Source: an uncultured Acidobacteriaceae bacterium
Lineage (GTDB): Bacteria; Acidobacteriota; Terriglobia; Terriglobales; Acidobacteriaceae
Assembly (NCBI GenBank): GCA_963765825.1
Contig: CAVXXU010000001.1
Span: 26,801 to 90,800, forward strand
Direction: 5' to 3'
Length of the DNA stretch: 64,000 bases
Position 1 is the stretch's first letter. Each line of letters opens with the position of its first letter. This document shows, in pieces, positions 4,926-53,733 of this stretch. Both the position numbers and the translations under genes were made by a program. The notes under the pieces are model-generated. The model saw only the letters and a program-made list of their open reading frames with translations, did not search any database and was not told the DNA's origin.

Positions 4926-6617
4926 GTGCCCAGGAAATTAAAGAACGCACTTCCTAGTTCCCGCTCCAGTTCCCGCTGGGATTCTGAGATCAGCCTGCTG
5001 GCTTGGCTCGCGACCTGCGTTTCCGTTGTTTCATTTCTCTTTTATTTTCAGCGCGGCGACGTGCTCCTCTATGGCGACGCCGTCGCGCACATCAACATCG
5101 CGCGGCGCGTCTTCGATTCCAAAACTCCCGGGCTGCTGCAACTGGGTACCGTTTGGCTTCCTCTGCCGCACCTGCTCATGATTCCGTTCCTGCTCTCCAA
5201 CGAAATGTGGCGACGCGGCGTCGGCGGCTCCATCCCCTCCATGGCGGCTTACGTATTCAGCGTGGTTGGAATGTTTCGCCTGGTTCGAAGCGCGCTCTCT
5301 CGCGGCCTTGAACCGGATGCGACTGCACGCATCGCCGCATGGACGGCGGCGGTACTCTTCGCGGCCAACCCGAATCTGATTTACATGCAAACCACCGCCA
5401 TGGGCGAGACGCTCTATCTTGCGTTCTTTCTATGGACCGTCGTGTACTTCACCGACTTCCTGCGCGGAAACGCCAAGGCGCTCACAAAATGTGCGTTATG
5501 TCTTGCCGCCGCTTGCCTCACGCGCTACGACGGATGGTTCCTCGCCGCCGTGCTTACAGCCGTGGTCGTGCTCCTCAGCATGCGCTCTCGCAAGGTCGCA
5601 CAGGGCGTGAACGCGCTGCGGATTACGCAAGCCGCATTGGTGAAGTTCGTTCTAATCGCGGCAGCCGCGCCCCTGCTGTGGCTGGCCTACAACGGAATCG
5701 TCTATCGCAATCCACTCGAGTTCGCGAACGGCCCCTACTCGGCCAAGGCCATCGAGCGCCACAATCAGAGCGCCGGCAATGTTGGCCATCCCGGCACCGG
5801 CAATCCTCTGCTGGCCGGGATGTATTTTCTTAAATCGGCGGAAGACAATCTCGCAGACAATGTACCTCTGCAGCGGGCCTGGATCCTGGTCGCGGTTGCG
5901 GGCGTGCTCGCAGCCGCATTGATTCGCCATCCGGCAGCCGATGCGGCCATCTCATCTCCAGCGAGAGCCTGGCCCCTGCTTCTCTTGCTCGTCCCCGGAG
6001 TCTTCTACGCTCTCTCGGTCGCCTACGGCGGCGTTCCCATTTTCGTTCCGCAATGGTGGCCGTTCTCTTATTACAACGTGCGCTACGGATTGCAGTTGCT
6101 CCCCGCTTTTGCCGTAGCGCTGGCCGTCGTTGTCCATCTCGCAATGCGGTGCATCACCTGGAATCCCAAGCTGCGCGCGGCATGCGTGCTTGGCGTGTTC
6201 ACGTTAGCAATCGCGAGTTATGCCTCCATCGTGCGAGCCGCACCGGTTTCCCTGAAAGAAGCTCAAGTCAACATGCGCACCCGCATTCAACTCGAAACCC
6301 GGCTCGCCATCTGGCTGCGCGATCTGCCTTCCGACTCCACTCTGCTTATGTACGTCGGAGACCACGTCGGCGCACTCCAACGGGCAGGCATTCCTCTCAA
6401 GCGCGTCATCAATGAAGGCAATCATCGGGTTTGGAAGCAGACCGATCCCGACGGCTTGTGGGAACACGCGCTGGCCGATCCCGCCCACTATGCCGATTAT
6501 GTAGTCGCCTTCCAGGGAGACCCCGTATGGCAGGCGATGCAGGCGCGGCATTTGGCGGCACTGGTTGAAATCCACGCTTCCGGGCAGGCGCCCGCCATTC
6601 TCTACCGGGCCCGGTAA
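4926..6617 (+). CDS. polytopic membrane protein, ArnT/PMT-like (GT-C fold) glycosyltransferase candidate
   Basis: 563 aa, GTG start, more than 10 hydrophobic segments. First loop LLYGDAVAHINIARRV resembles PMT_2/ArnT-type first-loop acidic motifs. Assignment is by eye only. Confidence 0.5.
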   Translation: MPRKLKNALPSSRSSSRWDSEISLLAWLATCVSVVSFLFYFQRGDVLLYGDAVAHINIARRVFDSKTPGLLQLGTVWLPLPHLLMIPFLLSNEMWRRGVGGSIPSMAAYVFSVVGMFRLVRSALSRGLEPDATARIAAWTAAVLFAANPNLIYMQTTAMGETLYLAFFLWTVVYFTDFLRGNAKALTKCALCLAAACLTRYDGWFLAAVLTAVVVLLSMRSRKVAQGVNALRITQAALVKFVLIAAAAPLLWLAYNGIVYRNPLEFANGPYSAKAIERHNQSAGNVGHPGTGNPLLAGMYFLKSAEDNLADNVPLQRAWILVAVAGVLAAALIRHPAADAAISSPARAWPLLLLLVPGVFYALSVAYGGVPIFVPQWWPFSYYNVRYGLQLLPAFAVALAVVVHLAMRCITWNPKLRAACVLGVFTLAIASYASIVRAAPVSLKEAQVNMRTRIQLETRLAIWLRDLPSDSTLLMYVGDHVGALQRAGIPLKRVINEGNHRVWKQTDPDGLWEHALADPAHYADYVVAFQGDPVWQAMQARHLAALVEIHASGQAPAILYRAR

Positions 6618-17752: not shown

Positions 17753-17912
17753 CAGAGGCCGAACGGACGGGAGAAGGCGGGACCCGATCGTCTCTTGCCA
17801 GGCCGGAGCCTGTGTGGACCTGACACGTTACACCAACCCTTTATCACTTTTCAACGCTTTTCAAGGGGAAGAAGTAACCGTGTAGGGACGAACGACGTGT
17901 GGGAACGTGTAG

Positions 17913-17934
17913 GGACGGACGCATTCGTCCGTCC
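17913..17934. repeat. REP-like palindrome family B (GGACGGACGCATTCGTCCGTCC)
   Basis: Perfect 9-bp arms around CATT. Preceded by a degenerate half copy, gtagggacgaacgacgtg. Confidence 0.8.
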
Positions 17935-18023
17935 AGGTTTTCAAAAGCTTGGTTTTCAAGAGCCTGGTTTTCGGAACGCTGGCCCGGGCATGTCATTCGC
18001 AACCCGCTCGGCTTCGCTTTCGC

Positions 18024-18567: not shown

Positions 18568-18574
18568 GCGGGAA

Positions 18575-18680
18575 TTTCAGATTGCAGATTTCAAATCTCA
18601 GATTTCAAATTGAATCCTTCGTCGACCCTTCCGGTCTTCAATCAGCAATCAACAATCAAAAATCAGCAATCCCGCCTTGT
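18575..18680. repeat. short-period repeats (CAGATTTCAAAT units, then AATCAGCAATCAACAATCAAAAATCAGCAATC)
   Basis: Seen directly. Immediately upstream of the 18058..18567 gene start. Confidence 0.8.
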
Positions 18681-20588: not shown

Positions 20589-20625
20589 GCTGGAACGATT
20601 CGTTCGCGCTACTTCTAATTACGTA

Positions 20626-20649
20626 GGGACGGACGCATTCGTCCGTCCC
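20626..20649. repeat. REP-like palindrome family B, second copy
   Basis: gggacggacgcattcgtccgtccc, 38 nt after the stop of the nucleotidyltransferase gene. May act as a terminator hairpin. Confidence 0.8.
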
Positions 20650-20826
20650 GGGCTGGATTCTGGAATGCTTTGTCCTATTGCCTCGTGGCCGGCGTGCGCC
20701 TTTGGCAGCATCATCAGAAGGCTTGCGTGGAAGGGCACGGCTTTAGCCGTGCCGTCAGAACCCGCCAAGGACGGGGCGTTAGCCCCTGAGGGCTGCTCCA
20801 CACCAATCGCAAAGCGGAAACAAAAT

Positions 20827-24736: not shown

Positions 24737-26770
24737 TTAGCGGGTGGCGGTTTTGGTGGTGGAAGTTTGCGGCGTGAAGTAGCGGACGGTCACGTCGTCG
24801 CCTAAATGGGTAGTGCGTGTGGCTGCTAATCGCGGACGCGTGGCGTGGGATCGGTCGGGAAAGGTTCGAACGGTGACGTCGTCGCCGATGTACTCGACTT
24901 CATTGGGCCCGACCTGCACTCGCTTGAGCGAAGGTGCGGAATGAGCGGCGGTGGCCTTCGCTGAAACCGGCGCCGGAGTGGGCGAGGCATCGGCTGCCGC
25001 CGTCGGCTTGGGAAGTTGAGGATGCGCATCATTGGCAGCGGCGCTGGTTGAAGTCGAAGATTCAGCGGGCTTTGCTGGGCCGTGGCTGCGGTAGGCCAGC
25101 ACGGTCGTAAAAGCGAACAAGATGGCGGCAGCCATAGCGAGGTCCCGCGAGGCGTTGGTCCAGCGAAGACTTCGAGCGCGTTGCGTCAGCAAGGCCACCG
25201 ATGAGACTGTGTTCTTCAAGATCGAAGAAAACTCGGAGGCGGCGTCGCGCGATCCTGCGCGCAAGCGGTCGGGCCAGTTGGAATTTCTGGCGCGTTGCGT
25301 GAGCCGGGCCGCGGATAAGGACGCTTGTTTAAAAGTAGAAGAAAACTGGGAGGAGGCATCGTGAGCTCTGGCGCGCAAACGGTCGGGCCATTTGGAATTC
25401 CTGGCGCGCTGCGCGAGCAAGGCTGCGGAGGCGGCGGTATTTTTAAAAGTCGAAAAGAGTTCTGTCGAAGCGTCCTGAGCCGTGCTTCGCAAATTTTCGC
25501 GCCATGCGGAAGTTCTGGTTCGCCAAGCGGGCGTAGCGGGGATCGCCGTTGTTGGCGGGATGGCTGGCAGCTCTTGCGAACGGGATTTCTGTTCGGACTG
25601 CTCTTGTGCCGGCGACAACGTTTGTGCGAGCGGCTCCTGCGGGGCTATTGCTTCTGGTGGCAACGGCTGCGTTGGCAGAACTTGTTTGGCAAACTGTTGT
25701 GCGGGGAGTTCTTCCTGCGGCCAATCTCGCGCCGACCAGTCTTGCGTCTCGAGTTTCTGGGTTGCCATTTCTTGTTGCGGAAATTCTTGCGGCAGCAACT
25801 CCTGCGGCAATTCCGGACCTGCGGCCTCGGCTGAGAGTTGGGTACGGCTGGGCCGGCGCCGGCTCTTCGCTCGTTGTGCCGCGGCAGTGGCGAGCCATGC
25901 GGCGTGACGGAATACGGGCAACTGCATGATGTCGGCAAACAATGCTCCGCAGCGAGCGTAGAGAGAATGCTCGTTTTCGGGAAGCATCAGGAAATCGGGT
26001 GCAGGCTCGAAGGCGTCGTCGAGCGGCGCAATTTCCTCAACGTCGTCAGCGGATGTCAATTGACTGACTGGCCGATTTTCTTCGACCTGACTGTTTGCGA
26101 AGCGATCCAGATCGATCTTGTTCTGTTCGATCTGACTGGGTACGAGTTGGTTTTTTTCAAACTGGGCAGCGTGGAAAAGCGCGGCTTCAATCTGTTCGGC
26201 CATCAAGCGGTAAGCACGCACTTCGGGAACGTCGAAGGCGTGGGGTTCGTGGAAGCGGATGTCAAGAACTCCACCGAGAGTTCCATCCTGATAAATCGGC
26301 ACAATGAGCAGCGCATTGGCGCCGAACTGGCGGCAAATGTCGGCTTCGATGCGCGTATCGGTTTGCGCATTTTCGACTCGAAGAATTTCGCAGTTAGTTT
26401 TTGTGCCGGGGGAAACGGTCAGGGAAGCGGTCACCTGGTGTCCAATCAAGGGGGCGCTGGTTCCGCTTCCGGCGCGGTAGGTCAAGCGATCACGCTTCAG
26501 CAGGGCAACGGCGATACCGCTGGCATTGGCCACGTGGCGCGCCGAATCCACGATGTGAGCCATCACGGAATCAACGTCAAGCTTGCCGCTGGCGAGCAAA
26601 CGCTGGATTTGCATGATTGCAGTGAGGGAGTGAGGATCGATGCGGCTTTCCTGCACCGCAAAAGCGTTGGCCAAAAGCTGCTGAAGAGTTTCGCGGTCGT
26701 TGGGTGGGTTGGTCATACTGCGGTGACACTCGGTGTAGCGACGTTGGCGGGCGAGCGGGCCGAACCACAT
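24737..26770 (-). CDS. membrane-anchored GAF-domain protein with Gln/Pro-rich linker, three 38-aa tandem repeats, one TM helix and short extracytoplasmic tail
   Basis: N-terminal GAF-like region (LLIVPIYQDGTLGGVLDIRF). Repeats DAS.(E/Q)FSS(T/I)(F/L)K...L(A/T)QRAR... occur three times. TM helix LAMAAAILFAFTTVLAY. Alternative start ATG 26716. Confidence 0.7.
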   Translation of the reverse strand: MWFGPLARQRRYTECHRSMTNPPNDRETLQQLLANAFAVQESRIDPHSLTAIMQIQRLLASGKLDVDSVMAHIVDSARHVANASGIAVALLKRDRLTYRAGSGTSAPLIGHQVTASLTVSPGTKTNCEILRVENAQTDTRIEADICRQFGANALLIVPIYQDGTLGGVLDIRFHEPHAFDVPEVRAYRLMAEQIEAALFHAAQFEKNQLVPSQIEQNKIDLDRFANSQVEENRPVSQLTSADDVEEIAPLDDAFEPAPDFLMLPENEHSLYARCGALFADIMQLPVFRHAAWLATAAAQRAKSRRRPSRTQLSAEAAGPELPQELLPQEFPQQEMATQKLETQDWSARDWPQEELPAQQFAKQVLPTQPLPPEAIAPQEPLAQTLSPAQEQSEQKSRSQELPAIPPTTAIPATPAWRTRTSAWRENLRSTAQDASTELFSTFKNTAASAALLAQRARNSKWPDRLRARAHDASSQFSSTFKQASLSAARLTQRARNSNWPDRLRAGSRDAASEFSSILKNTVSSVALLTQRARSLRWTNASRDLAMAAAILFAFTTVLAYRSHGPAKPAESSTSTSAAANDAHPQLPKPTAAADASPTPAPVSAKATAAHSAPSLKRVQVGPNEVEYIGDDVTVRTFPDRSHATRPRLAATRTTHLGDDVTVRYFTPQTSTTKTATR
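25142..25480 (-). repeat. three 114-bp tandem coding repeats inside the GAF-domain gene
   Basis: A 38-aa period is seen in the protein, and the DNA blocks are visibly similar. Confidence 0.8.
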
Positions 26771-28503: not shown

Positions 28504-29799
28504 TCATTTGGCTTTGGCGGGGGCGACGGCGGACGCAGAGCCGGCGGACGCGGCGGCGGCGTTGGCAAGGGGAGCCGTGGCAGGTTGCTTGGCGCAGAGT
28601 TCGATGACCTCGGAGATGCGCTGGTTCTCGCATTGCTTTTGCATCTGCCAGTTGCGGAGAGTTTCTCTTTCCTGGGCAATCTGATCGTGGTTGTGCTGGA
28701 TGCGCTCGGCGTAGTGGGCGGTGACACGATCCATCTCGGCCTGAATCTGGGCGTTCTCGGCGGCTTTGCGGGCTTCGAATTCTTCGAGCTGTTTCTGCTG
28801 GCCCGCCTCGTAGGAGGTGAGAGCCTGCTGGCGGCGAGTGGCGTCCTGAAGCAGATCGTCGGAGGAAGTGCCGGCGGCATCGAGGGCCATGAGGACGGAG
28901 GCACGCTTGACGTCGGGCGCGAGGGCCTGAAGGCGGTCGCTGTTAAGCATGTCGACGACTTTGTGGATGCCGTATCCGGAGCGCGGGCTGAGAATGCCAG
29001 CGGCGCGGTAGATATCTTCGTAAGAGAGCAGATTGGTTTGGGGGCCGGTAAGGCCCTCCGCGGGACGAGATGGCGATTGGGTCATAGAAGCCTCCGTGGG
29101 TGGTGAAACGGTTTTGGGCGCGACAGGTTGCTCGTGCTTGCGCCAGAGATTTGGAAAGAATCCTTTGGACTGCATAATGTTCCTTTCTTGCCGCGGGGGC
29201 GCGCCTGCGGGTTGGGACTGGGCTCGTCGCGGGGGATCAGCGGGACGCATGGTGGATTTTGCAGAGTCGTTCGCGGTAGAGCGGGGCGCCGGAATGCGAG
29301 AGGCTGGATGGGTGAGATCGGGGACGGGATTTGAGCGCGAAATGAAAGTGCGCGCTGGCGCCTGACGAGCCTGGGGCGACGGCATTGCGACGGACGGTGC
29401 GGGGAAAGGTTGAGGGCGGGGCGGCGCGACTGGGGAAGGAGAAATGGCTTCCTTCGCGGCTGAGCTGGCTTGGAGGAGCAAGGGATCGCGGCGGACGCCG
29501 AGGAGAAAATCTCTGCCATCCTTGCGGCAGTTTCTGGCAATGGCGGAAAATTGCTCACGTTGCCACTTGACGACGAGTTTGGAACCGACCGTGACGGGAG
29601 TCTTGACGCGGATGCAGGCGCCGGACGGGGAAGTGTCTTCCATGGTAGCGGGCTCGCGATAGGGAGTTCCTGTGGGATCCTCCCAGGAAACCTCAGCGAC
29701 TGCCCACAAGACCGTTCTTGGTTCGAAGTTGCGGCCGTCCATGCCATGTTTATCGGCAGGGGAGTGGGGTGGATTAGTTACGAGTGGGGGGATTTTCAA
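28504..29799 (-). CDS. PilZ-like domain protein with Pro-rich linker and C-terminal coiled-coil domain of unknown function
   Basis: 431 aa. N-terminal beta-barrel-like region with DTSPSG (DxSxxG) preceded by RNFEPR, a degenerate RxxxR. ~170-aa Pro/Ala/Ser-rich linker. C-terminal helical region rich in Q/E/A. Confidence 0.6.
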   Translation of the reverse strand: MKIPPLVTNPPHSPADKHGMDGRNFEPRTVLWAVAEVSWEDPTGTPYREPATMEDTSPSGACIRVKTPVTVGSKLVVKWQREQFSAIARNCRKDGRDFLLGVRRDPLLLQASSAAKEAISPSPVAPPRPQPFPAPSVAMPSPQARQAPARTFISRSNPVPDLTHPASRIPAPRSTANDSAKSTMRPADPPRRAQSQPAGAPPRQERNIMQSKGFFPNLWRKHEQPVAPKTVSPPTEASMTQSPSRPAEGLTGPQTNLLSYEDIYRAAGILSPRSGYGIHKVVDMLNSDRLQALAPDVKRASVLMALDAAGTSSDDLLQDATRRQQALTSYEAGQQKQLEEFEARKAAENAQIQAEMDRVTAHYAERIQHNHDQIAQERETLRNWQMQKQCENQRISEVIELCAKQPATAPLANAAAASAGSASAVAPAKAK

Positions 29800-29895
29800 A
29801 GTGGTATGTTTCCCGAATTGAATTCGTGGTGGAAGGAGCGCGGCCGAGCTTTGCTCGGCTTGTCCGGGTTGAAACCCGGAGCCACATCAACAAAC

Positions 29896-31512
29896 CTAAC
29901 TGCTGAAGAGGCGCATCAGGTCGGAGGCTGGCAGGTCGGGGGAGAGGAAGCGCGGGACGGTGCGGCCGGCGGCGCGGGCGAGGGCTTCGGCGGCGAGATA
30001 GCCGCTGCGGACGGCGCCTTCCATGGTGGCGGGCCAGCCGGTGGCGGTCCAGTCTCCAGCGAGAAAAACGCGGGGCCATGCGGTGGCGGGCGAGGGGCGG
30101 TGGGCGTCGATGCCGGGGCGCGGGGAATAGGTGGCGTGGAGTTCCTTGATTACCGTGGATTTCACAAGATTGGCAGTGCGGGCGGCGGGGAAGAATTCGC
30201 GGACTTCGGCGAGAGCGAGGTCGACGATTTCGGCGCGGGATTTGTCGATGAGGGATTTGGAGGAGCTGACGACGAGCTCGATGTAGCTGCCGGTCGACTC
30301 AGGATTCTTTCGCCCCTCCGGGGCTATCGCTTCATCGTTGTCGTCGGCCCCACGGCTTGCGCCGTGGGCTGCATTCTTGCGCCGCTCCGCGGCTTGTGCT
30401 GCCGATGTGGGGATAGGGTCGCCTCCGCCGCGGGTGGGATTGCCGGTGGTGCGCATGGGTTGGAGGCGGGATTTGTGAAACATCCATTGGATGGTGCGGT
30501 CGAGGAGGACGGCGTGGTCGAGGTCGGAGATCTGGCGGTCGAACCAGAGGTGGATGCCGGTGATGGGTGCGGTTTCGAAATGGCTGAGTTGCTCGCGGAT
30601 GGGGGCACTTTCGGGAGTGTCGGGGAGGACTTTTTGTAGAGCGTCGAAGGGTAGGGCCAGGATCAGGAAGTCAAAATCCCCACCCTGTCCCTGCAAAGTG
30701 CGCAGGGACAAGGGTGGGGCACCCTCGTTATCCCCACGCTTGTTGGAATTTCTTTCTTCTTGATTTCGGAGTTGCAGGTGAACGCGGTCCGCGTCGGCGG
30801 TGAAACTTTCTATTGGTTGGCGGAAGTGGAGTTCGCCGCCGCGGGCGCGGATGTAGTCGCCGGCGGCGTTGTAGAGGTCGGTGAGGGGGACGGTGGGCAC
30901 GCCCATTTGGCGGGCGGCGGGAGATTTCATGGATTCGCGGACGACTTGAGCGGCGGCTGAGATGGAGATGAGATCGAGTTCCTCGCTCAGGGCGCTGATC
31001 AGGATGGGGCGCCAGAAGCGCTCGACGGCTTGCTTGGTTTGACCGTGCTGATCGAGCCAGTGCTGGAAAGATTGTCCGGTGTCGGGTTGCGAGGTAAGCG
31101 TGAGCGGGACCAGTGCGCGGGCGATGGCGAGTTTGTCGGTAACGCTGAGGAAATGGAAACGCAGAAACGACGGGGCGGTGTGGAGCGGGGCGGGGAGCGA
31201 GGAGGATTTCATGATTGACGTGCGGCCGCCGGGCTCGATGAAGGTCATTTCGTCGTACCAGCGGATTTGGTTGGCGACGCCGATACGGTCGTAAAACTCA
31301 AGCAGGTTGGTGCAGACGCGAAACAGGACGTGCTGGCAGTTGTCGACGACTTCGCCGGTGCCGGGATGTTCCCAGGAGGAAGCACGGCCGCCGAGGAAGG
31401 GACGCTTCTCGAAGAGGGTGACGTGAAAACCGGCGTCGGACAAGGCGCAGGCGGCGGCGAGTCCGGCGAGACCGCCTCCGGCGACTGCGACTTTGGGTTG
31501 GGTGGGAGGCAT
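29896..31512 (-). CDS. hpnE: hydroxysqualene dehydroxylase (FAD-dependent amine-oxidase fold) HpnE, carrying two repeat-derived in-frame insertions
   Basis: 538 aa. Rossmann motif VAVAGGGLAGLAAACALSDAGFHVTLFEKRPFLGGRA. Sits downstream of hpnC-hpnD on the same strand. Confidence 0.85.
   Translation of the reverse strand: MPPTQPKVAVAGGGLAGLAAACALSDAGFHVTLFEKRPFLGGRASSWEHPGTGEVVDNCQHVLFRVCTNLLEFYDRIGVANQIRWYDEMTFIEPGGRTSIMKSSSLPAPLHTAPSFLRFHFLSVTDKLAIARALVPLTLTSQPDTGQSFQHWLDQHGQTKQAVERFWRPILISALSEELDLISISAAAQVVRESMKSPAARQMGVPTVPLTDLYNAAGDYIRARGGELHFRQPIESFTADADRVHLQLRNQEERNSNKRGDNEGAPPLSLRTLQGQGGDFDFLILALPFDALQKVLPDTPESAPIREQLSHFETAPITGIHLWFDRQISDLDHAVLLDRTIQWMFHKSRLQPMRTTGNPTRGGGDPIPTSAAQAAERRKNAAHGASRGADDNDEAIAPEGRKNPESTGSYIELVVSSSKSLIDKSRAEIVDLALAEVREFFPAARTANLVKSTVIKELHATYSPRPGIDAHRPSPATAWPRVFLAGDWTATGWPATMEGAVRSGYLAAEALARAAGRTVPRFLSPDLPASDLMRLFSS
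30300..30420. repeat. REP-like GC-rich hairpin element embedded in frame in hpnE
   Basis: Contains cccacggcttgcgccgtggg (8-bp stem), flanked by cgcccctccggggc and gcgccgctccgcggc. Translated as the low-complexity AAERRKNAAHGASRGADDNDEAIAPEGRK. Confidence 0.55.
30672..30724. repeat. palindromic element family P (copy 1), in frame inside hpnE
   Basis: caaaatccccaccctgtccctgcaaagtgcgcagggacaagggtggggcaccc, with ~17-bp imperfect stem arms. Confidence 0.85.
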
Positions 31513-31564
31513 TCTTAGTTAGAGACTTAGGGTCGAGTCACAAAACTTACTTCTGACGACGAAG

Positions 31565-31635
31565 ATCAGAAGTCAGAAGTCAAAAATCAAAAGTCAGAAG
31601 TCAGAAGTCAACAAGTCAGAAGTCACAAGTCAGAG
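31565..31635. repeat. short-period (7-8 nt) tandem repeat, GTCAGAA/GTCAAAA units
   Basis: atcagaagtcagaagtcaaaaatcaaaagtcagaagtcagaagtcaacaagtcagaagtcacaagtcagag, in the hpnD-hpnE spacer. Confidence 0.85.
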
Positions 31636-31636
31636 T

Positions 31637-31686
31637 AAAATCCCCACCCTCTTTCGCAGAAAACGCGAAAGAAGGATGGGGCACCC
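31637..31686. repeat. palindromic element family P (copy 2), intergenic hpnD-hpnE
   Basis: aaaatccccaccctctttcgcagaaaacgcgaaagaaggatggggcaccc. Same termini as copies 1 and 3; the inner stem sequence differs but is still complementary. Confidence 0.8.
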
Positions 31687-31706
31687 ATCCGCGTCTTTTT
31701 GCATGA

Positions 31707-32645
31707 TCACGTTATGCGTCGGAGGAAACCTTTCGCTAGGATGCGGAGCTTTTCCCATGTGCTGAGGGAGATTTTGGCAGTGAAGACGTCGTATTGTTTT
31801 TCGGCGATTTTTTCGAGCAGGCGGCGGTAGATAGTTACCAGCACCCAGAGCGCGGGCTGGCTGTCTTCGGCGATATAGGGAATGAGCGCTTCACCGGAGA
31901 GGTAGAACTTGCGGGCGCGGTCGGCTTCGAGTTCGAGGACGGGGCGGAAGCGGGCCGCGTCGGGCGTCGCGAGAAGTTCGGCGGCGGATAAATTGAACTT
32001 CGCCAGATCTTCTTCGGGAAGATAGACGCGGCCCATGCCGGCGTCTTCTTTCACGTCGCGAATAATGTTGGTGAGCTGAAAGGCGAGGCCGCAGGTTTCG
32101 GCGAGAGGCTCGGCGGCGGGGTCGCGGTATCCGAAGATGTGAATGCAGACCAGGCCGACGACCGAAGCGACGCGATAACAATAGAGGCGAAGGTCTTCGA
32201 AAGTTCGGTACTGGATGGTTATGGCCGGAGCGCCGGTGGTTTGGGCTTCGGCTTGTTCCACGTCCATGGCGGTGCCGTGGGCGAGTTCGTCGAGCAATCC
32301 GGCGGGAATGGAAAAGCGGCGCTGAGCGTCGGTGAGGGCGAGCAGGATGGCGTCGTCGGTGGGGTGGCCCTGCTGGGCGCGATGCAGAGCGTCGAGCCAG
32401 GTCTCGAGTTTCTGGCGACGCTCGGGCAAACTTAATTTTGGGTCGTCGGTGATGTCGTCGCAAAGACGCATGAAGGCGTAGACGGCGCACAGGGCTTCGC
32501 GTTTGCGGCGGGGGAGAACGAGGAAGGCGTAGTAGAAATTTTTAGCCGCGGTGCGAGTGATGCCCTTGCACACGGAGTAGGCCATGACGAGCTGAGGCGG
32601 AGCTGGAGTCCAGGGAACGGGGACCTGCTGGGTGCCGACGCTCAT
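31707..32645 (-). CDS. hpnD: presqualene diphosphate synthase HpnD
   Basis: 312 aa. Squalene/phytoene synthase fold with Asp-rich motif RLCDDITDD. ATGA overlap with the hpnC stop. Confidence 0.85.
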   Translation of the reverse strand: MSVGTQQVPVPWTPAPPQLVMAYSVCKGITRTAAKNFYYAFLVLPRRKREALCAVYAFMRLCDDITDDPKLSLPERRQKLETWLDALHRAQQGHPTDDAILLALTDAQRRFSIPAGLLDELAHGTAMDVEQAEAQTTGAPAITIQYRTFEDLRLYCYRVASVVGLVCIHIFGYRDPAAEPLAETCGLAFQLTNIIRDVKEDAGMGRVYLPEEDLAKFNLSAAELLATPDAARFRPVLELEADRARKFYLSGEALIPYIAEDSQPALWVLVTIYRRLLEKIAEKQYDVFTAKISLSTWEKLRILAKGFLRRIT

Positions 32646-33589
32646 GGCTTGCCTCCGAAGATCTTTGCTATTGCGGCGCGGGCTACCAGAGCGAGTTTCC
32701 GGGCCTTGGAGATGGCGGGACGCTTGCCGAGGACGGCATAGTTCTGTTGTTCAATGGCGTTCAGAATTTCCAGGCCGCCGCGGCTGAAGAGATCGAGATC
32801 GACGGCGAGTTCGCGGTCTACTTTTTTTATCAGCGGCATCCCTTGGCGAAACCAGTCGCGGGCGCGCTCGACTTCAAACTTCATCATGGCGCAGAAGGCG
32901 GGAGTGTTCTGATTGTTGGCAATTTCCTGCTGGGTGACGTTGAAGCGGCGGAGGTCTTCGAGGGGGAGATAGACGCGTCCCTTGTCGTAGTCGATGCTGA
33001 CATCCTGCCAGAAGTTGGCGAGTTGCAAGGCGGTGCAGGTGAAATCGGAAAGATACTGGCGCTCGACGTCGCGATATCCGCAGAGGTAGAGGACGAGATG
33101 GCCGACGGGATTGGCGGAGTAGCGGCAATAGGCCAGGACGTCGTTGAAAGTTTCGAAGCGGGTTACGGTTTGGTCCTGGCGAAAGGCGCGGAGAAGATCG
33201 GAGAACTCGAGCTTGGGGATATCAAATTCGCGGACGGTTTCGGCGAGCGCGACGAAAACAGGATGGTGCGGATTGCCGTCGTAGCAGGCGTCGAGCTCGA
33301 GTTGCCATTGATCGAGCAGGGCGAGGGAAGCGGCGGGGTCGCCGACTTCGTCGCCGAGATCGTCGGAGATGCGGCAGTAGGCGTAGACATTGAAGAAATG
33401 CTGGCGGAGACGGCTGGGGAGGAACCAGCTGGCGACGGAGAAATTTTCGTAGTGGGTGCGGGCGAGGCGGGCGCAGTATTCGCGGGCTTCCGCGAGAGTG
33501 GGAGGAGTGGCCGGAATGGCGTAGTCGGAGGGCAGGCGGGACCAGCCGAGAGCGGCGGGGGACGCGGATTGGGTCACGACTTCGGTCAT
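32642..33589 (-). CDS. hpnC: hydroxysqualene synthase HpnC
   Basis: 315 aa. Squalene/phytoene synthase fold with YAYCRISDDLGDEV. First gene of the hpnCDE order. Confidence 0.85.
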   Translation of the reverse strand: MTEVVTQSASPAALGWSRLPSDYAIPATPPTLAEAREYCARLARTHYENFSVASWFLPSRLRQHFFNVYAYCRISDDLGDEVGDPAASLALLDQWQLELDACYDGNPHHPVFVALAETVREFDIPKLEFSDLLRAFRQDQTVTRFETFNDVLAYCRYSANPVGHLVLYLCGYRDVERQYLSDFTCTALQLANFWQDVSIDYDKGRVYLPLEDLRRFNVTQQEIANNQNTPAFCAMMKFEVERARDWFRQGMPLIKKVDRELAVDLDLFSRGGLEILNAIEQQNYAVLGKRPAISKARKLALVARAAIAKIFGGKP

Positions 33590-33744: not shown

Positions 33745-33800
33745 GGTCTTCAATCACAATCGGAAATCAACAATCAGAAATCAACAATCATCAATAATTA
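33745..33800. repeat. short-period A-rich repeat (AATCAACAATCA type)
   Basis: caatcacaatcggaaatcaacaatcagaaatcaacaatcatcaataatt, between the dehydrogenase stop and the hpnC start. Confidence 0.8.
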
Positions 33801-34877: not shown

Positions 34878-34948
34878 GGGGCTAAAGCCCCATCTTGCAT
34901 TTGCCCTTAGCGGCGTGGCTGAAACCGCGCCCTTTCAAAGCCGTGAGA
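34878..34948. repeat. REP-like family C (GGCTAAAGCC ... AAGCCGCGCCCTTTCAAA)
   Basis: gggctaaagcccc...ggctgaaaccgcgccctttcaaagcc. Lies between the two MDR dehydrogenase genes. Confidence 0.7.
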
Positions 34949-36234: not shown

Positions 36235-36559
36235 TGGGTCTTATTTTAGATGATGCGGGCGAGGAGTTTGGTTCAAATCGAGGGCGCGGGTGGACTGATG
36301 GTAACTGGGGTTTCTAGCGGGTGCGGTGGCGTACAAATCGGGGTTTGGGAGTTTTATGAGCCGAGGGCGAAGACGCCCCTTCGACAAGCTCAGGGCGAGC
36401 TCTCGGGACAGCCGGCAGGGTGCCGGCGCTACTCTTATGGTGTGCTGTCTGGGAGCGTGCTGGGCGAGCGGGCCGATGTTGTCAATGGCGCTGCGCCTCA
36501 CGGACTTGCGAGGCGTTTCATGCTATGCTGCGCAAAACTTTTGGATTCCGGGAGTGGCC

Positions 36560-38332
36560 GTGCTGATTGAAATGCGGCTGGAAAATTACGCGGTGATCGA
36601 CAACTTGGTGGTGGAGTTCGGGCAGGGGTTGAACCTGCTGACGGGCGAGACCGGAGCGGGGAAGTCGATCCTGGTGGACGCGCTGGCGCTGCTGTTGGGC
36701 GATAAGGCGTCGAGCGACGTGATTCGCATGGGCGCGGAGCGGGCCATGGTGTCGGCGGTGTTTGAGGCTGAATGCGCGGCGGAGAAGCCGCTCGCGCGGA
36801 TTCTGGAAGCGAATGGGTTGGATGAGTCGGACGACGGGTCTTTGATTTTGCGTCGGGAGATTGCGGCGTGTGGCAAGGGACGAGTGTTCGTGAACAACCA
36901 GCCGGCGACTGTCGCGGTGTTGCGGCTGCTGGCGCCGTTTCTGGCGACGGTCCACGCGCAGAATGAATCGCTCGCATCTTTCGACGGCCCGGCGCGGCTG
37001 GGGCTGCTGGACGCGTTTGCGGGAAGTCAACTCGACGCGATAGAGAGTGGGTTCGCGGCGTGGAAGGAAATTCGCAACCGCATCGACGAACTGGAGCGCG
37101 GAGAGCAGGACCGGCTGCGGCTGGTCGATTTATGGATTTTCCAAAAGAAAGAGATTGAAGAGGCGCGGCCACAGAGCGGAGAAGACGAGGGGCTGGAGAC
37201 GGAGAAGCGCGTTCTGGCGAATGCGGAGAAAATTTATAACGCAGCGATGAACGCGTTTGATTTGCTGTATGAGGGGAATGGTTCGACGGCATCGACATTG
37301 CGAGCGGCGCAGAAGCAGGTGGAGGAGTTGGTTCGGTACGAGCCCAAGTTTCAGGAGGCGCTGGCGGCGCTGGAGACGGCGCGGATCAGCGTGGAAGACG
37401 TGGGCGCGACGGTGCGCGATTATGCGGGAGGGATTCATGCTTCGCCGGAACACCTGGCGCAGGTGGAAGATCGGCTGGCGCTGCTGGAGCGGTTGAAGCG
37501 GAAGTATGGGCCGCGCCTGGATGAGGTGATCGCGTTCGGGGAGGAGGTGACGCGCAAATTGTCGGAGGTCGAGAACAAAGATGAGATTCTGCGCGGGCTG
37601 CGGAGTGAACTGGCGAAGGCTGCGGGGGAGTATTTGCGAGCGGCGCGAGCACTGTCGAAGAAACGGGCGGAGGCGGCACGGCGGCTGGAGAAGTTGGTAG
37701 AGGCCGAGATCAACGATCTGGCGATGAAGTCGGCATTTCGGATTGAGATGACGAGTTCGGACGAGCAAGGGAACTGGACGGGGTCGGGAATCGACCAAGT
37801 TGTATATATGATTTCGACGAATCCGGGGGAGCCGTTGCGGCAATTGGAACATATCGCGTCGGGTGGAGAGTTGTCGCGGGTGATGCTGGCGCTGAAAGCG
37901 AGTGTAGAGGCGGGCAAAAGGCCCGCTCCTAGCAAAGACCGCGAAAAATGGGTCAGCCAGGAAAAAGTCAAAATCCCCGCCCTGTCTCTGCAAAAGACGC
38001 AGAGACAAGGACGGGGCACCCAGAGGACTTTGGTTTTTGACGAGATCGATACTGGGATTGGGGGGCGGGCGGCGGAGGCGGTGGGGAAGAAGTTGAAGTC
38101 GCTGGCACGATCGAACCAGGTGTTGTGCGTGACGCATTTGCCGCAGATCGCTACTTTCGGGGATCATCACTACGTGATTGAGAAGAAGGAATCCGGAGGA
38201 CGGACGCGGACGAGTATTCGCCGGGTGACGGGCGAGGAACGAACGGAAGAAGTGGCGCGCATGTTAAGTGGGGCGAAGCTCACCGAGACTTCGCGCAAGC
38301 ATGCGGAGCAGATGATCAAGACTAACGGGTGA
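36560..38332 (+). CDS. recN: DNA repair protein RecN with ~35-aa in-frame insertion before the Walker B region
   Basis: Walker A LTGETGAGKS. SMC signature SGGELSRVMLALK. Walker B LVFDEIDTGIGG. GTG 36560 gives MLIEMRLENYAVID, a typical RecN N-terminus; the upstream part of ORF 36326.. overlaps a REP-like element. Confidence 0.9.
   Translation: MLIEMRLENYAVIDNLVVEFGQGLNLLTGETGAGKSILVDALALLLGDKASSDVIRMGAERAMVSAVFEAECAAEKPLARILEANGLDESDDGSLILRREIAACGKGRVFVNNQPATVAVLRLLAPFLATVHAQNESLASFDGPARLGLLDAFAGSQLDAIESGFAAWKEIRNRIDELERGEQDRLRLVDLWIFQKKEIEEARPQSGEDEGLETEKRVLANAEKIYNAAMNAFDLLYEGNGSTASTLRAAQKQVEELVRYEPKFQEALAALETARISVEDVGATVRDYAGGIHASPEHLAQVEDRLALLERLKRKYGPRLDEVIAFGEEVTRKLSEVENKDEILRGLRSELAKAAGEYLRAARALSKKRAEAARRLEKLVEAEINDLAMKSAFRIEMTSSDEQGNWTGSGIDQVVYMISTNPGEPLRQLEHIASGGELSRVMLALKASVEAGKRPAPSKDREKWVSQEKVKIPALSLQKTQRQGRGTQRTLVFDEIDTGIGGRAAEAVGKKLKSLARSNQVLCVTHLPQIATFGDHHYVIEKKESGGRTRTSIRRVTGEERTEEVARMLSGAKLTETSRKHAEQMIKTNG
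37969..38021. repeat. palindromic element family P (copy 3), in frame inside recN
   Basis: caaaatccccgccctgtctctgcaaaagacgcagagacaaggacggggcaccc. Confidence 0.85.
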
Positions 38333-51871: not shown

Positions 51872-52028
51872 GCGGTACCTCAGCGGCTAAAGCCGGCATC
51901 ATTTCGGATCGCTTACGGCGCGTCTGAAGCCGCGCCCTTTCAAACAAGGCCGACGCCCTTTCAAAGCAAAGCCAGCACCCTTTCAAAACAAAGGTGCGAC
52001 CTTTTACGGCAAAGCCGACCCCTTTGAG
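51868..52028. repeat. REP-like family C with about 5 degenerate ~21-bp tandem modules (..CGCCCTTTCAAA..)
   Basis: cctcagcggctaaagccg...cgcttacggcgcg...gaagccgcgccctttcaaacaagg/ccgacgccctttcaaagcaaag/ccagcaccctttcaaaacaaagg/tgcgaccttttacggcaaag/ccgacccctttgagac. Confidence 0.8.
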
Positions 52029-53661: not shown

Positions 53662-53733
53662 GTTAATTCTCCCTCAGCGGCTAAAGCCGCGACTCAATTG
53701 GTACGCTTACGGCGCGGCTTTAGGCCGCGCCCT
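53662..53733. repeat. REP-like family C copy between korA and korB
   Basis: cctcagcggctaaagccgcgactcaattggtacgcttacggcgcggctttaggccgcgccctttcaaaaca. Shares the cctcagcggctaaagcc and cgcttacggcgcg blocks with the 51868 copy. Confidence 0.8.

Follow-up and report, generated by a model that had tools for sequence, protein, structure and literature searches.

Colonization of coding sequence by repeats is textbook knowledge for Rickettsia. There, Rickettsia palindromic elements (RPEs) lie in frame within genes as palindromic repeats (Ogata et al. 2000, as summarised in PMC3733652). Repetitive extragenic palindromes (REPs) with a GTAG or CGTC tag have also been catalogued inside genes, many of which function in replication and repair, and a link with REP-associated tyrosine transposases (RAYTs) has been proposed (Di Nocera et al. 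2013, PMC3733652). The biology of REPINs and RAYTs has been described (Bertels and Rainey 2011, PMC3116915; PMC3337134). For Acido-Lenti-1, a motif of Acidobacteria and Lentisphaerae with 89 representatives, a role as non-coding RNA was considered probable (Weinberg et al. 2010, PMC2864571).

Here we describe two repeats, element P (insert 1) and element Q (insert 2), that are translated within the hydroxysqualene dehydroxylase gene hpnE of an uncultured Acidobacteriaceae bacterium (GenBank assembly GCA_963765825.1, contig CAVXXU010000001.1, positions 26,801 to 90,800; this 64,000 nt stretch is the window). An earlier note on this DNA had claimed that hpnE contains two separate insertions, in frame and derived from repeats, and this was borne out, the two being independent: P is multi-copy, the core of Q is Rfam family RF01687 (Acido-Lenti-1), and both sites are usually shorter in orthologs. 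We consider it probable that two unrelated GC-rich hairpin repeat families, of the REP or miniature inverted-repeat transposable element (MITE) class, landed in hpnE and persist there as tolerated insertions. P and Q in hpnE are intragenic REP- or RPE-like elements, a kind already known, of which these members are new; within its bounds, a full-text literature search for Acidobacteria REPs and for the motif name returned no description of the P or Q family and none of intragenic Acido-Lenti-1.

Results

Two loops of HpnE are filled by different repeat families

On sequence criteria the 538 aa open reading frame (ORF) is HpnE, the predicted enzyme for conversion of hydroxysqualene to squalene. 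It scored 447.5 bits against the equivalog profile TIGR03467 (cut-off 283; profile length 430), with the match split into two stretches and the interruption at insert 2. The hpnC and hpnD neighborhood that accompanies hpnE was present, and in syntenic loci both neighbors matched PF00494 (SQS_PSY). The nearest database proteins were 482-569 aa long and 84-86% identical and, where the source names them, are HpnE of Candidatus Sulfotelmatobacter (Acidobacteriota). The ORF is intact and its core is conserved in a codon-like manner, with identity of 0.925 at codon positions 1 and 2 and 0.644 at position 3.

We compared 84 hpnE loci, 80 of them with 10-kb flanks from species-representative genomes and 4 others; by record title the 80 are mostly metagenome-assembled genomes (MAGs) of Sulfotelmatobacter, Acidobacteriaceae or Terriglobales. 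Filled and empty states of both sites were visible in DNA and protein alignments (Table 1), and repeat-free orthologs did not carry segments of equal length at either site. Lineages with empty sites were dispersed over a single-gene neighbor-joining (NJ) tree, on which the state changes given in Table 1 are minimum numbers. By DNA pattern, 13 further loci have P at the position that it occupies in hpnE here, and by peptide there are more. The long forms of site 1 were mostly P of subfamily c, and some carried other P variants with the same ends, namely GAPLLPGVGRSGDFD or a composite containing EPALSLSKG. At site 2, the sequence termed R/S belongs to a different, two-hairpin family, is read as EGHDFSRA or RGRAALQGRV ... 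ALAPEG, and has copies outside hpnE too. Different repeat families fill these two loops in different lineages. The same inserts recur in assemblies deposited under several accession series, and an assembly artefact is thereby ruled out. Within the window, R/S copies were also seen at 51878-51944, 53672-53719 and 34911-34939, with a 21-nt tandem array derived from one R/S end (AAGCCGCGCCCTTTCAAAGCA) at 51927-52025.

In an alignment to rice phytoene desaturase (PDS; 5MOG), gaps opened at both inserts, insert 1 falling between PDS residues 262 and 280 and insert 2 between 337 and 359. An AlphaFold2 (AF2) model built on a 120-sequence alignment gave a pTM of 0.71 and had 5MOG as its best PDB match (TMt 0.67); 30 close sequences had given an unusable model with a predicted local distance difference test score (pLDDT) of 51. 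The low-confidence parts of the model (pLDDT <50) include residues 261-267 and 331-405. Insert 1 is flanked by strands E244-248 and E282-285, and insert 2 by strands E342-346 and E409-416. This placement between modeled strands suggests that both inserts are excursions from strand-connecting loops.

Table 1. Positions of the repeats, their host genes and neighboring features in the window, and of the two variable sites in HpnE
Feature	Position	Strand	Evidence or description
hpnE coding sequence, 538 aa, host of both inserts	29896-31512	minus	ORF list and TIGR03467
Element P, subfamily c, in hpnE	30668-30724	minus	57-nt repeat; hairpin 30677-30724, tail TTTTGACTT 30668-30676
Variable low-complexity stretch QEERNSNKRGDNE adjoining P, outside the repeat	30725-30762	minus	Ortholog alignment
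Element Q, ~95-nt three-hairpin repeat	30297-30396	plus	Covariance model R1, 95.7 bits
Q core, Rfam RF01687 Acido-Lenti-1	30349-30394	plus, antisense to hpnE	49.3 bits
Lineage-specific low-complexity segment GNPTRGGGDPIPTSAA between conserved HpnE strand and Q	30397-30444	minus	Ortholog alignment
HpnE site 1	residues 244-284		41 aa here, usually 16-24 aa; long in 25/84 taxa; at least 8 changes on NJ tree
HpnE site 2	residues 348-411		64 aa here, usually 14-20 aa; 13 with Q, 26 with R/S, 45 with neither; at least 21 changes on NJ tree
recN ORF, second host of P	36326-38332	plus	TIGR00634, 502.6 bits, in two stretches
P copy in recN	37965-38021	minus	Read by RecN, from the other strand, as VKIPALSLQKTQRQGRGTQ; interval between ABC signature motif and Walker B
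Degenerate P-type remnant, subfamily a, same recN loop	37921-37959	minus	Read as RPAPSKDREKWVSQ
Intergenic P-type copy, subfamily b, hpnD-hpnE spacer	31632-31688	minus	Head GGGTGCCCC and end GGGGATTTT shared
Heptamer tandem array GAAGTCA, 10.3 copies	31561-31634		Tandem Repeats Finder; abuts the intergenic P copy
hpnD	31707-32645	minus	ORF; directly upstream of hpnE
hpnC	32642-33589	minus	ORF; upstream of hpnE with hpnD

Element P is a widespread hairpin repeat carried by several genes

In hpnE, P comprises a 48-nt hairpin and its tail and is translated as GAPPLSLRTLQGQGGDFDF (about residues 264-282) and nothing more. The adjoining QEERNSNKRGDNE aligns with QEENxxx stretches that are present also in P-less orthologs. 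The assignment of peptides to the repeats in the earlier note therefore stands for their cores, with narrower borders: QEERNSNKRGDNE, and GNPTRGGGDPIPTSA at the N-terminal end of its second peptide (encoded by 30397-30444), lie outside the elements. The 57-nt P of hpnE recurs in recN with 86% identity and in equal plus-strand orientation, which confirms the earlier claim that the two genes read P in opposite orientations. The intergenic P copy in the window has an inner stem that differs from that of the hpnE copy and is self-complementary, and orthologous copies were present in the hpnD-hpnE spacer of seven other loci. All three copies folded stably as RNA, at -39 kcal/mol (z -5.5) in hpnE, -28.8 kcal/mol (z -5.9) in recN and -30.9 kcal/mol (z -5.2) in the spacer.

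In RecN, the loop that connects the ABC signature motif to Walker B varied from 41 to 74 aa among 50 orthologs and held up to two recognizable P-type units, both antisense and read as PTSRKxREKWGTQ or IPALSLQK.QGQG.GT. The recN gene of the window has two such units, the complete P and the degenerate remnant, whose peptide RPAPSKDREKWVSQ matches the subfamily a peptide PTSRKxREKWGTQ of recN orthologs. Here too, different repeat families fill one loop across lineages. The RecN profile match begins at residue 79, and the listed ORF begins about 78 codons earlier (36326-36570), so the true recN start is probably downstream of the listed one. This 5' extension translates another repeat peptide, PFDKLRASSRDSRQGAGAT, and a similar in-frame peptide was seen in the SLT transglycosylase of locus L028.

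A pattern scan of metagenome contigs from soil and peat matched P in at least 120 stretches. Among the matches listed, P occurred in at least 88 distinct non-hpnE flank contexts after removal of duplicates; its stem was 17 bp and covaried at two pairs (A-T 43 vs G-C 8; C-G 47 vs T-A 7). In the 57 independent contexts among these matches, the first six positions of the 3' flank TTTTGAYTT were 81-96% conserved and the 5' flank was weakly conserved. In 1.7 Mb of syntenic loci, 79 pattern matches to the P superfamily were found. By an open-frame test most P copies look intergenic, and at least seven real genes carry P. Pfam-supported hosts of P subfamily c were a TilS-like protein (PP-loop and TilS_C), a Mur ligase, an AMP-binding/acyltransferase enzyme, a family-2 glycosyltransferase and a TPR/FG-GAP protein; in addition, an SLT transglycosylase carried a composite repeat with P-type termini. 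P was translated in three different frames, and all five Pfam-supported families use the recN-type strand. Long P-spanning ORFs in loci L116, L120, L121, L135, L174, L176, L178 and L193 were rejected on inspection as spurious antisense or low-complexity frames. In the TilS-like proteins of L095 and L139, the P loop held further repeat-like peptides such as GLKPSVSEVAPGRGPEGPLFHG and AGSRALSKH, which suggests stacked insertions.

Several other repeats were noted in the vicinity of P copies or elsewhere in the window. The reverse complement (TGACTTC) of the GAAGTCA array resembles the conserved P tail, and tandem tail-like units trail some metagenome P copies (L086/L157, L152). Further intergenic tandem heptamer arrays lie at 18574-18671 and 33752-33795. 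A GTAG-tagged REP-like hairpin, GTAGGGACGGACGCATTCGTCCGTCC, has two copies of 97% identity in the window (17909-17937 and 20623-20651), and the same motif occurs just upstream of P in metagenome loci L152, L190 and L193. At 25224-25480, a 114-nt unit is tandemly duplicated (~2 copies, 75-82% matches).

Element Q is a three-hairpin repeat with Acido-Lenti-1 at its core

Self-BLAST of insert 2 against the 64-kb window found no second copy, and the repeat nature of this insert is therefore shown through Rfam and related loci. The earlier note had called it a REP-like hairpin block; the repeat character was upheld and the description is now refined to Acido-Lenti-1 inside a longer, three-hairpin element. 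The RF01687 match is full length (model positions 1-46 of 46; gathering score 37, E 4e-8), a half-unit of the same family scored 13.9 bits at 30305-30324, and orthologous and intergenic copies scored 45.5-53.8 bits. Comparison of related loci gave the layout of Q, which starts TTCTTTCG, as a B' hairpin, a 22-24 nt spacer, an 8-bp A hairpin, the linker CTGCATTCTTNCG and a B hairpin. The hpnE frame reads this element antisense as QAAERRKNAAHGASRGADDNDEAIAPEGRKNPE. Only the closest relative, L001, has the neighboring lineage-specific segment as well, in a form expanded into tandem ADPxR-like units.

A covariance model of Q with 97 positions and three hairpins, searched in 1.7 Mb of related sequence, found 30 copies, of which 12 were inside hpnE and 18 elsewhere, several of the latter sharing one spot upstream of hpnC. 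In the alignment of these 30 copies, 97.2% of cells were paired and 13 of 18 pairs showed compensatory change; the observed score was reached in 0/500 shuffles. Rfam lists RF01687 under the type gene, sRNA, for which a non-coding location is expected, whereas the family is translated in frame in 12 orthologs. In the Rfam orientation, antisense to hpnE, the stems of Q held 16 G.U against 5 A.C, a weak hint that the structured strand may be the one antisense to hpnE. A protein-database search for other hosts with the 50-aa insert 2 peptide returned only three weak matches. In locus L022, two Q copies lie inverted and abutting (5071-5167, minus; 5164-5261, plus) as a REPIN-like pair.

RAYT genes adjoin P copies in related contigs

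In the related DNA analyzed, six ORFs had the HUH and Y motifs of Y1 transposases, and 4/4 Y1-type ORFs tested matched PF01797. Against NF047646, REP-associated tyrosine transposase (cut-off 80), the ORF of L007 scored 112 bits and that of L115 scored 105 bits. In L087, the 3' end of the RAYT gene overlaps one copy of P subfamily c, with a second copy ~55 nt beyond; in L115, such a copy lies 186 nt upstream of the RAYT gene. Flanking of a RAYT gene by family members, as is characteristic of REPs, was thus seen in related contigs (L087, L115) and not in the window. Syntenic RAYT genes also lie ~10 kb downstream of hpnE in L007 (20198-20923), L010 (20859-21509) and L020 (21025-21462), each with P-like hairpins within ~100 nt.

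In the syntenic region, 73/79 P-superfamily pattern matches were on one strand, and TTTGAC was present exactly at the junction of the empty hpnE allele. Together with the adjacency of RAYT genes, these observations point to RAYT-mediated single-strand transposition beside TTTGAY. We suggest that P would have moved as a single-stranded hairpin by IS200/IS605-like chemistry and inserted beside a TTTGAY target, such that the FD(F/Y) codons of hpnE may represent the target and not the cargo.

Open frames on both strands are expected by chance

The earlier note had taken the openness of P on both strands as a sign of selection against stop codons. This was not supported, as dinucleotide shuffles were equally open. 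The P 57-mer is open in 5/6 frames, which 71% (hpnE) and 50% (recN) of shuffles reach, and the 48-nt core is open in 6/6 frames, matched by 36% of shuffles; one random frame per strand was open on both in 65% of shuffles. Shuffles of Q had 4.17 open frames on average and Q itself has four, with 1/3 sense frames open, and non-hpnE Q copies had a mean of 3.39 open frames against 3.25 in shuffles. Since P is palindromic and its strands are nearly identical, openness on one strand largely implies openness on the other, and the peptides from the two strands are near-mirror versions of each other (PPLSLRTLQGQGG, PALSLQKTQRQGRG). Openness is chance for short GC-rich palindromes combined with purging of disruptive insertions.

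Synonymous sites are highly conserved within the elements

Unexpectedly, third-codon identity among orthologs was 0.853 in P of hpnE against 0.644 in the hpnE core, a value reached by 0/365 core windows, and 0.818 in the Q core against 0.585, reached by 0/368 core windows. In other lineages, the R hairpin likewise showed 0.89 against 0.55. At codon positions 1 and 2, conservation was higher in the hpnE core than within P or Q. Lower conservation at positions 1 and 2 with higher conservation at position 3 indicates that conservation in the elements is nucleotide-like and not codon-like. The hpnE copies of P carry the private loop variants GTAGTTT and GCACTTT, while other copies mostly have GTCTTTT or GCTTTTT, which argues for one old insertion and not repeated re-insertion.

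Discussion

P and Q resemble several described systems, each in part. As with RPEs, short palindromes lie in frame in many unrelated and apparently functional genes, are tolerated there, and occur between genes as well. The hosts here are free-living soil Acidobacteriota, and the likeness is one of behavior, with no homology to RPE-1 to RPE-8 claimed; also unlike RPEs, two loops of one enzyme hold different families in sister lineages, and RAYT genes adjoin copies. The catalogued GTAG- and CGTC-tagged REPs share with our elements their location in coding regions, a repair gene (recN) as host and RAYT genes beside copies; Q, which begins TTCTTTCG, is untagged, and P copies are mostly single hairpins and not inverted dimers. 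Compared with REPINs, the common features are covarying hairpin repeats, a bias to one strand and a Y1 transposase of the single-copy type (NF047646) flanked by family members, and both P and Q are short multi-copy palindromes with compensatory stem changes, as REPs and REPINs are. In contrast, we saw no inverted pairs for P and one for Q (L022), and mobilization of the elements here is putative.

Q agrees with Acido-Lenti-1 as described in having two hairpins and a linker in its core, a score above the gathering threshold and a host from the same phylum, but here this unit forms the core of a longer three-hairpin repeat, lies within coding sequence and has its opposite strand translated. Shared with IS200/IS605 elements (IS608 paradigm, PMC6006769) are a subterminal hairpin, the absence of a target duplication and, on one side only, a short conserved sequence that pre-exists at the empty hpnE site; the difference is that the TTTGAY motif and the side of insertion are deduced here from flanks alone. 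MITEs have terminal inverted repeats and target-site duplications, whereas no duplication was seen for P and its 3' flank alone is conserved.

We propose that the inserts in hpnE persist because they kept the frame, the frame used is free of stops, and they lie in length-tolerant loops of a flavoenzyme. The encoded peptides would be passengers, forming flexible and poorly ordered loops with no catalytic role. Nucleotide conservation of the hairpins would reflect constraints on the repeat families themselves, for which transposase recognition, arm-to-arm correction or turnover are candidates, and not protein function.

Several observations weigh against this interpretation. The synonymous sites of P and the Q core are the most conserved of hpnE, which would not be predicted for a purely neutral passenger. 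The confidence of the AF2 model is lowest exactly at the inserts, and the model does not demonstrate a disordered loop. No RAYT gene is present in the window, including the region that corresponds to the genes of L007, L010 and L020, and the conserved P tail could be part of the element instead of the target. Q was seen in frame in hpnE only: the 18 other copies lack a convincing gene-spanning frame, which gives them a mostly or wholly intergenic look as judged from ORFs. A clean filled and empty pair for P with exact borders was not found among the hpnE loci; the nearest alleles without P show a difference of 12 aa, whereas the element has 16 or 19 codons. The non-hpnE P copy of L035 similarly yielded no clean empty allele, its flanks being too poorly conserved. 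Finally, P has neither a GTAG nor a CGTC tag, its head being GGGTGCCCC and its tail TTTTGAYTT.

The conservation of synonymous sites could result from family-level constraints, from arm-to-arm correction or from a nucleic-acid function. If the last of these applies, the hairpins would be kept by selection as nucleic-acid elements within the coding sequence, a case of dual-coding DNA with the peptides as by-product. P could then act as a translation-sensitive pause or attenuator, a terminator or an mRNA-stabilizing stem-loop of the hpnCDE transcript, while Q could serve as an Acido-Lenti-1 small RNA antisense to hpnE. The high third-codon identity of P, the Q core and the R hairpin fits this explanation, as does the single old insertion of P indicated by its private loop variants. 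On the hpnE mRNA, the stable hairpin of P is followed by AUUUUGACUU, and hpnE is the only host in which the hairpin precedes a U-rich tail on the sense strand, the orientation being reversed in the five Pfam families and in recN. For Q, the G.U to A.C ratio of 16:5 points in the same direction, but this bias may come partly from the model's own orientation. However, the stems decay without compensation or with deletions in L002, L006, L007, L008, L009, L012 and L084, and many orthologs have neither element. A terminator scan of 29500-32000 (at least 5 U in 8) called neither P copy in that range, the tail of P in hpnE (AUUUUGAC) having 4 U only. Moreover, arm-to-arm correction of palindromes or turnover of copies predicts conservation of this kind. 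On balance, we regard selection for a nucleic-acid function as unlikely. If true, it would account for the synonymous conservation in P, Q and the R family, and would give the Rfam "sRNA" family Acido-Lenti-1 its first functional context.

A lower probability still attaches to the proposal that the repeat families have been selected to avoid stops on both strands, which would enable them to colonize genes. Among P-superfamily cores, 57/70 have no stop in any of the six frames (mean number of open frames 5.80; shuffles 5.12), and at least three different P frames are used in real proteins. These 70 cores are related, and the small excess of open frames therefore amounts to about one observation. 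For the actual copies, shuffles were equally open in 36-79% of trials, the non-hpnE Q copies barely differ from theirs, and Q has stops in 2/3 sense frames; purging of stop-carrying insertions, that is, survivorship, covers the remainder. That the segments are native HpnE linkers, assembly artefacts or parts of a decaying pseudogene, with a coincidental or gene-derived similarity to repeats, has almost nothing to recommend it beyond the low complexity and variable length of both sites across the family, and is refuted as far as sequence data allow by P and Q at many unrelated loci with identical borders, by the scattered empty-site lineages that demand repeated state changes on the NJ tree, and by the recurrence of the inserts across accession series in an intact ORF with a codon-like core.

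Interpreted as tolerated insertions of two repeat families, the inserts have several implications. Repeat occupancy explains the spread of HpnE ORF lengths (468-599 aa) and spurious small ORFs in these MAGs. Acido-Lenti-1 needs to be re-read, since its behavior here is that of the core of an interspersed REP-like repeat that can be translated, and this bears on the annotation of RF01687 matches. Given the synonymous conservation within the elements, one may ask what maintains intragenic hairpins. Having been hit repeatedly, the RecN loop and both HpnE loops constitute natural "permissive sites", useful for protein engineering. Colonization of genes by repeats is thus wider than the described cases, as it is active also among Candidatus Sulfotelmatobacter and relatives, which are free-living soil Acidobacteriota, and affects housekeeping and repair genes there.

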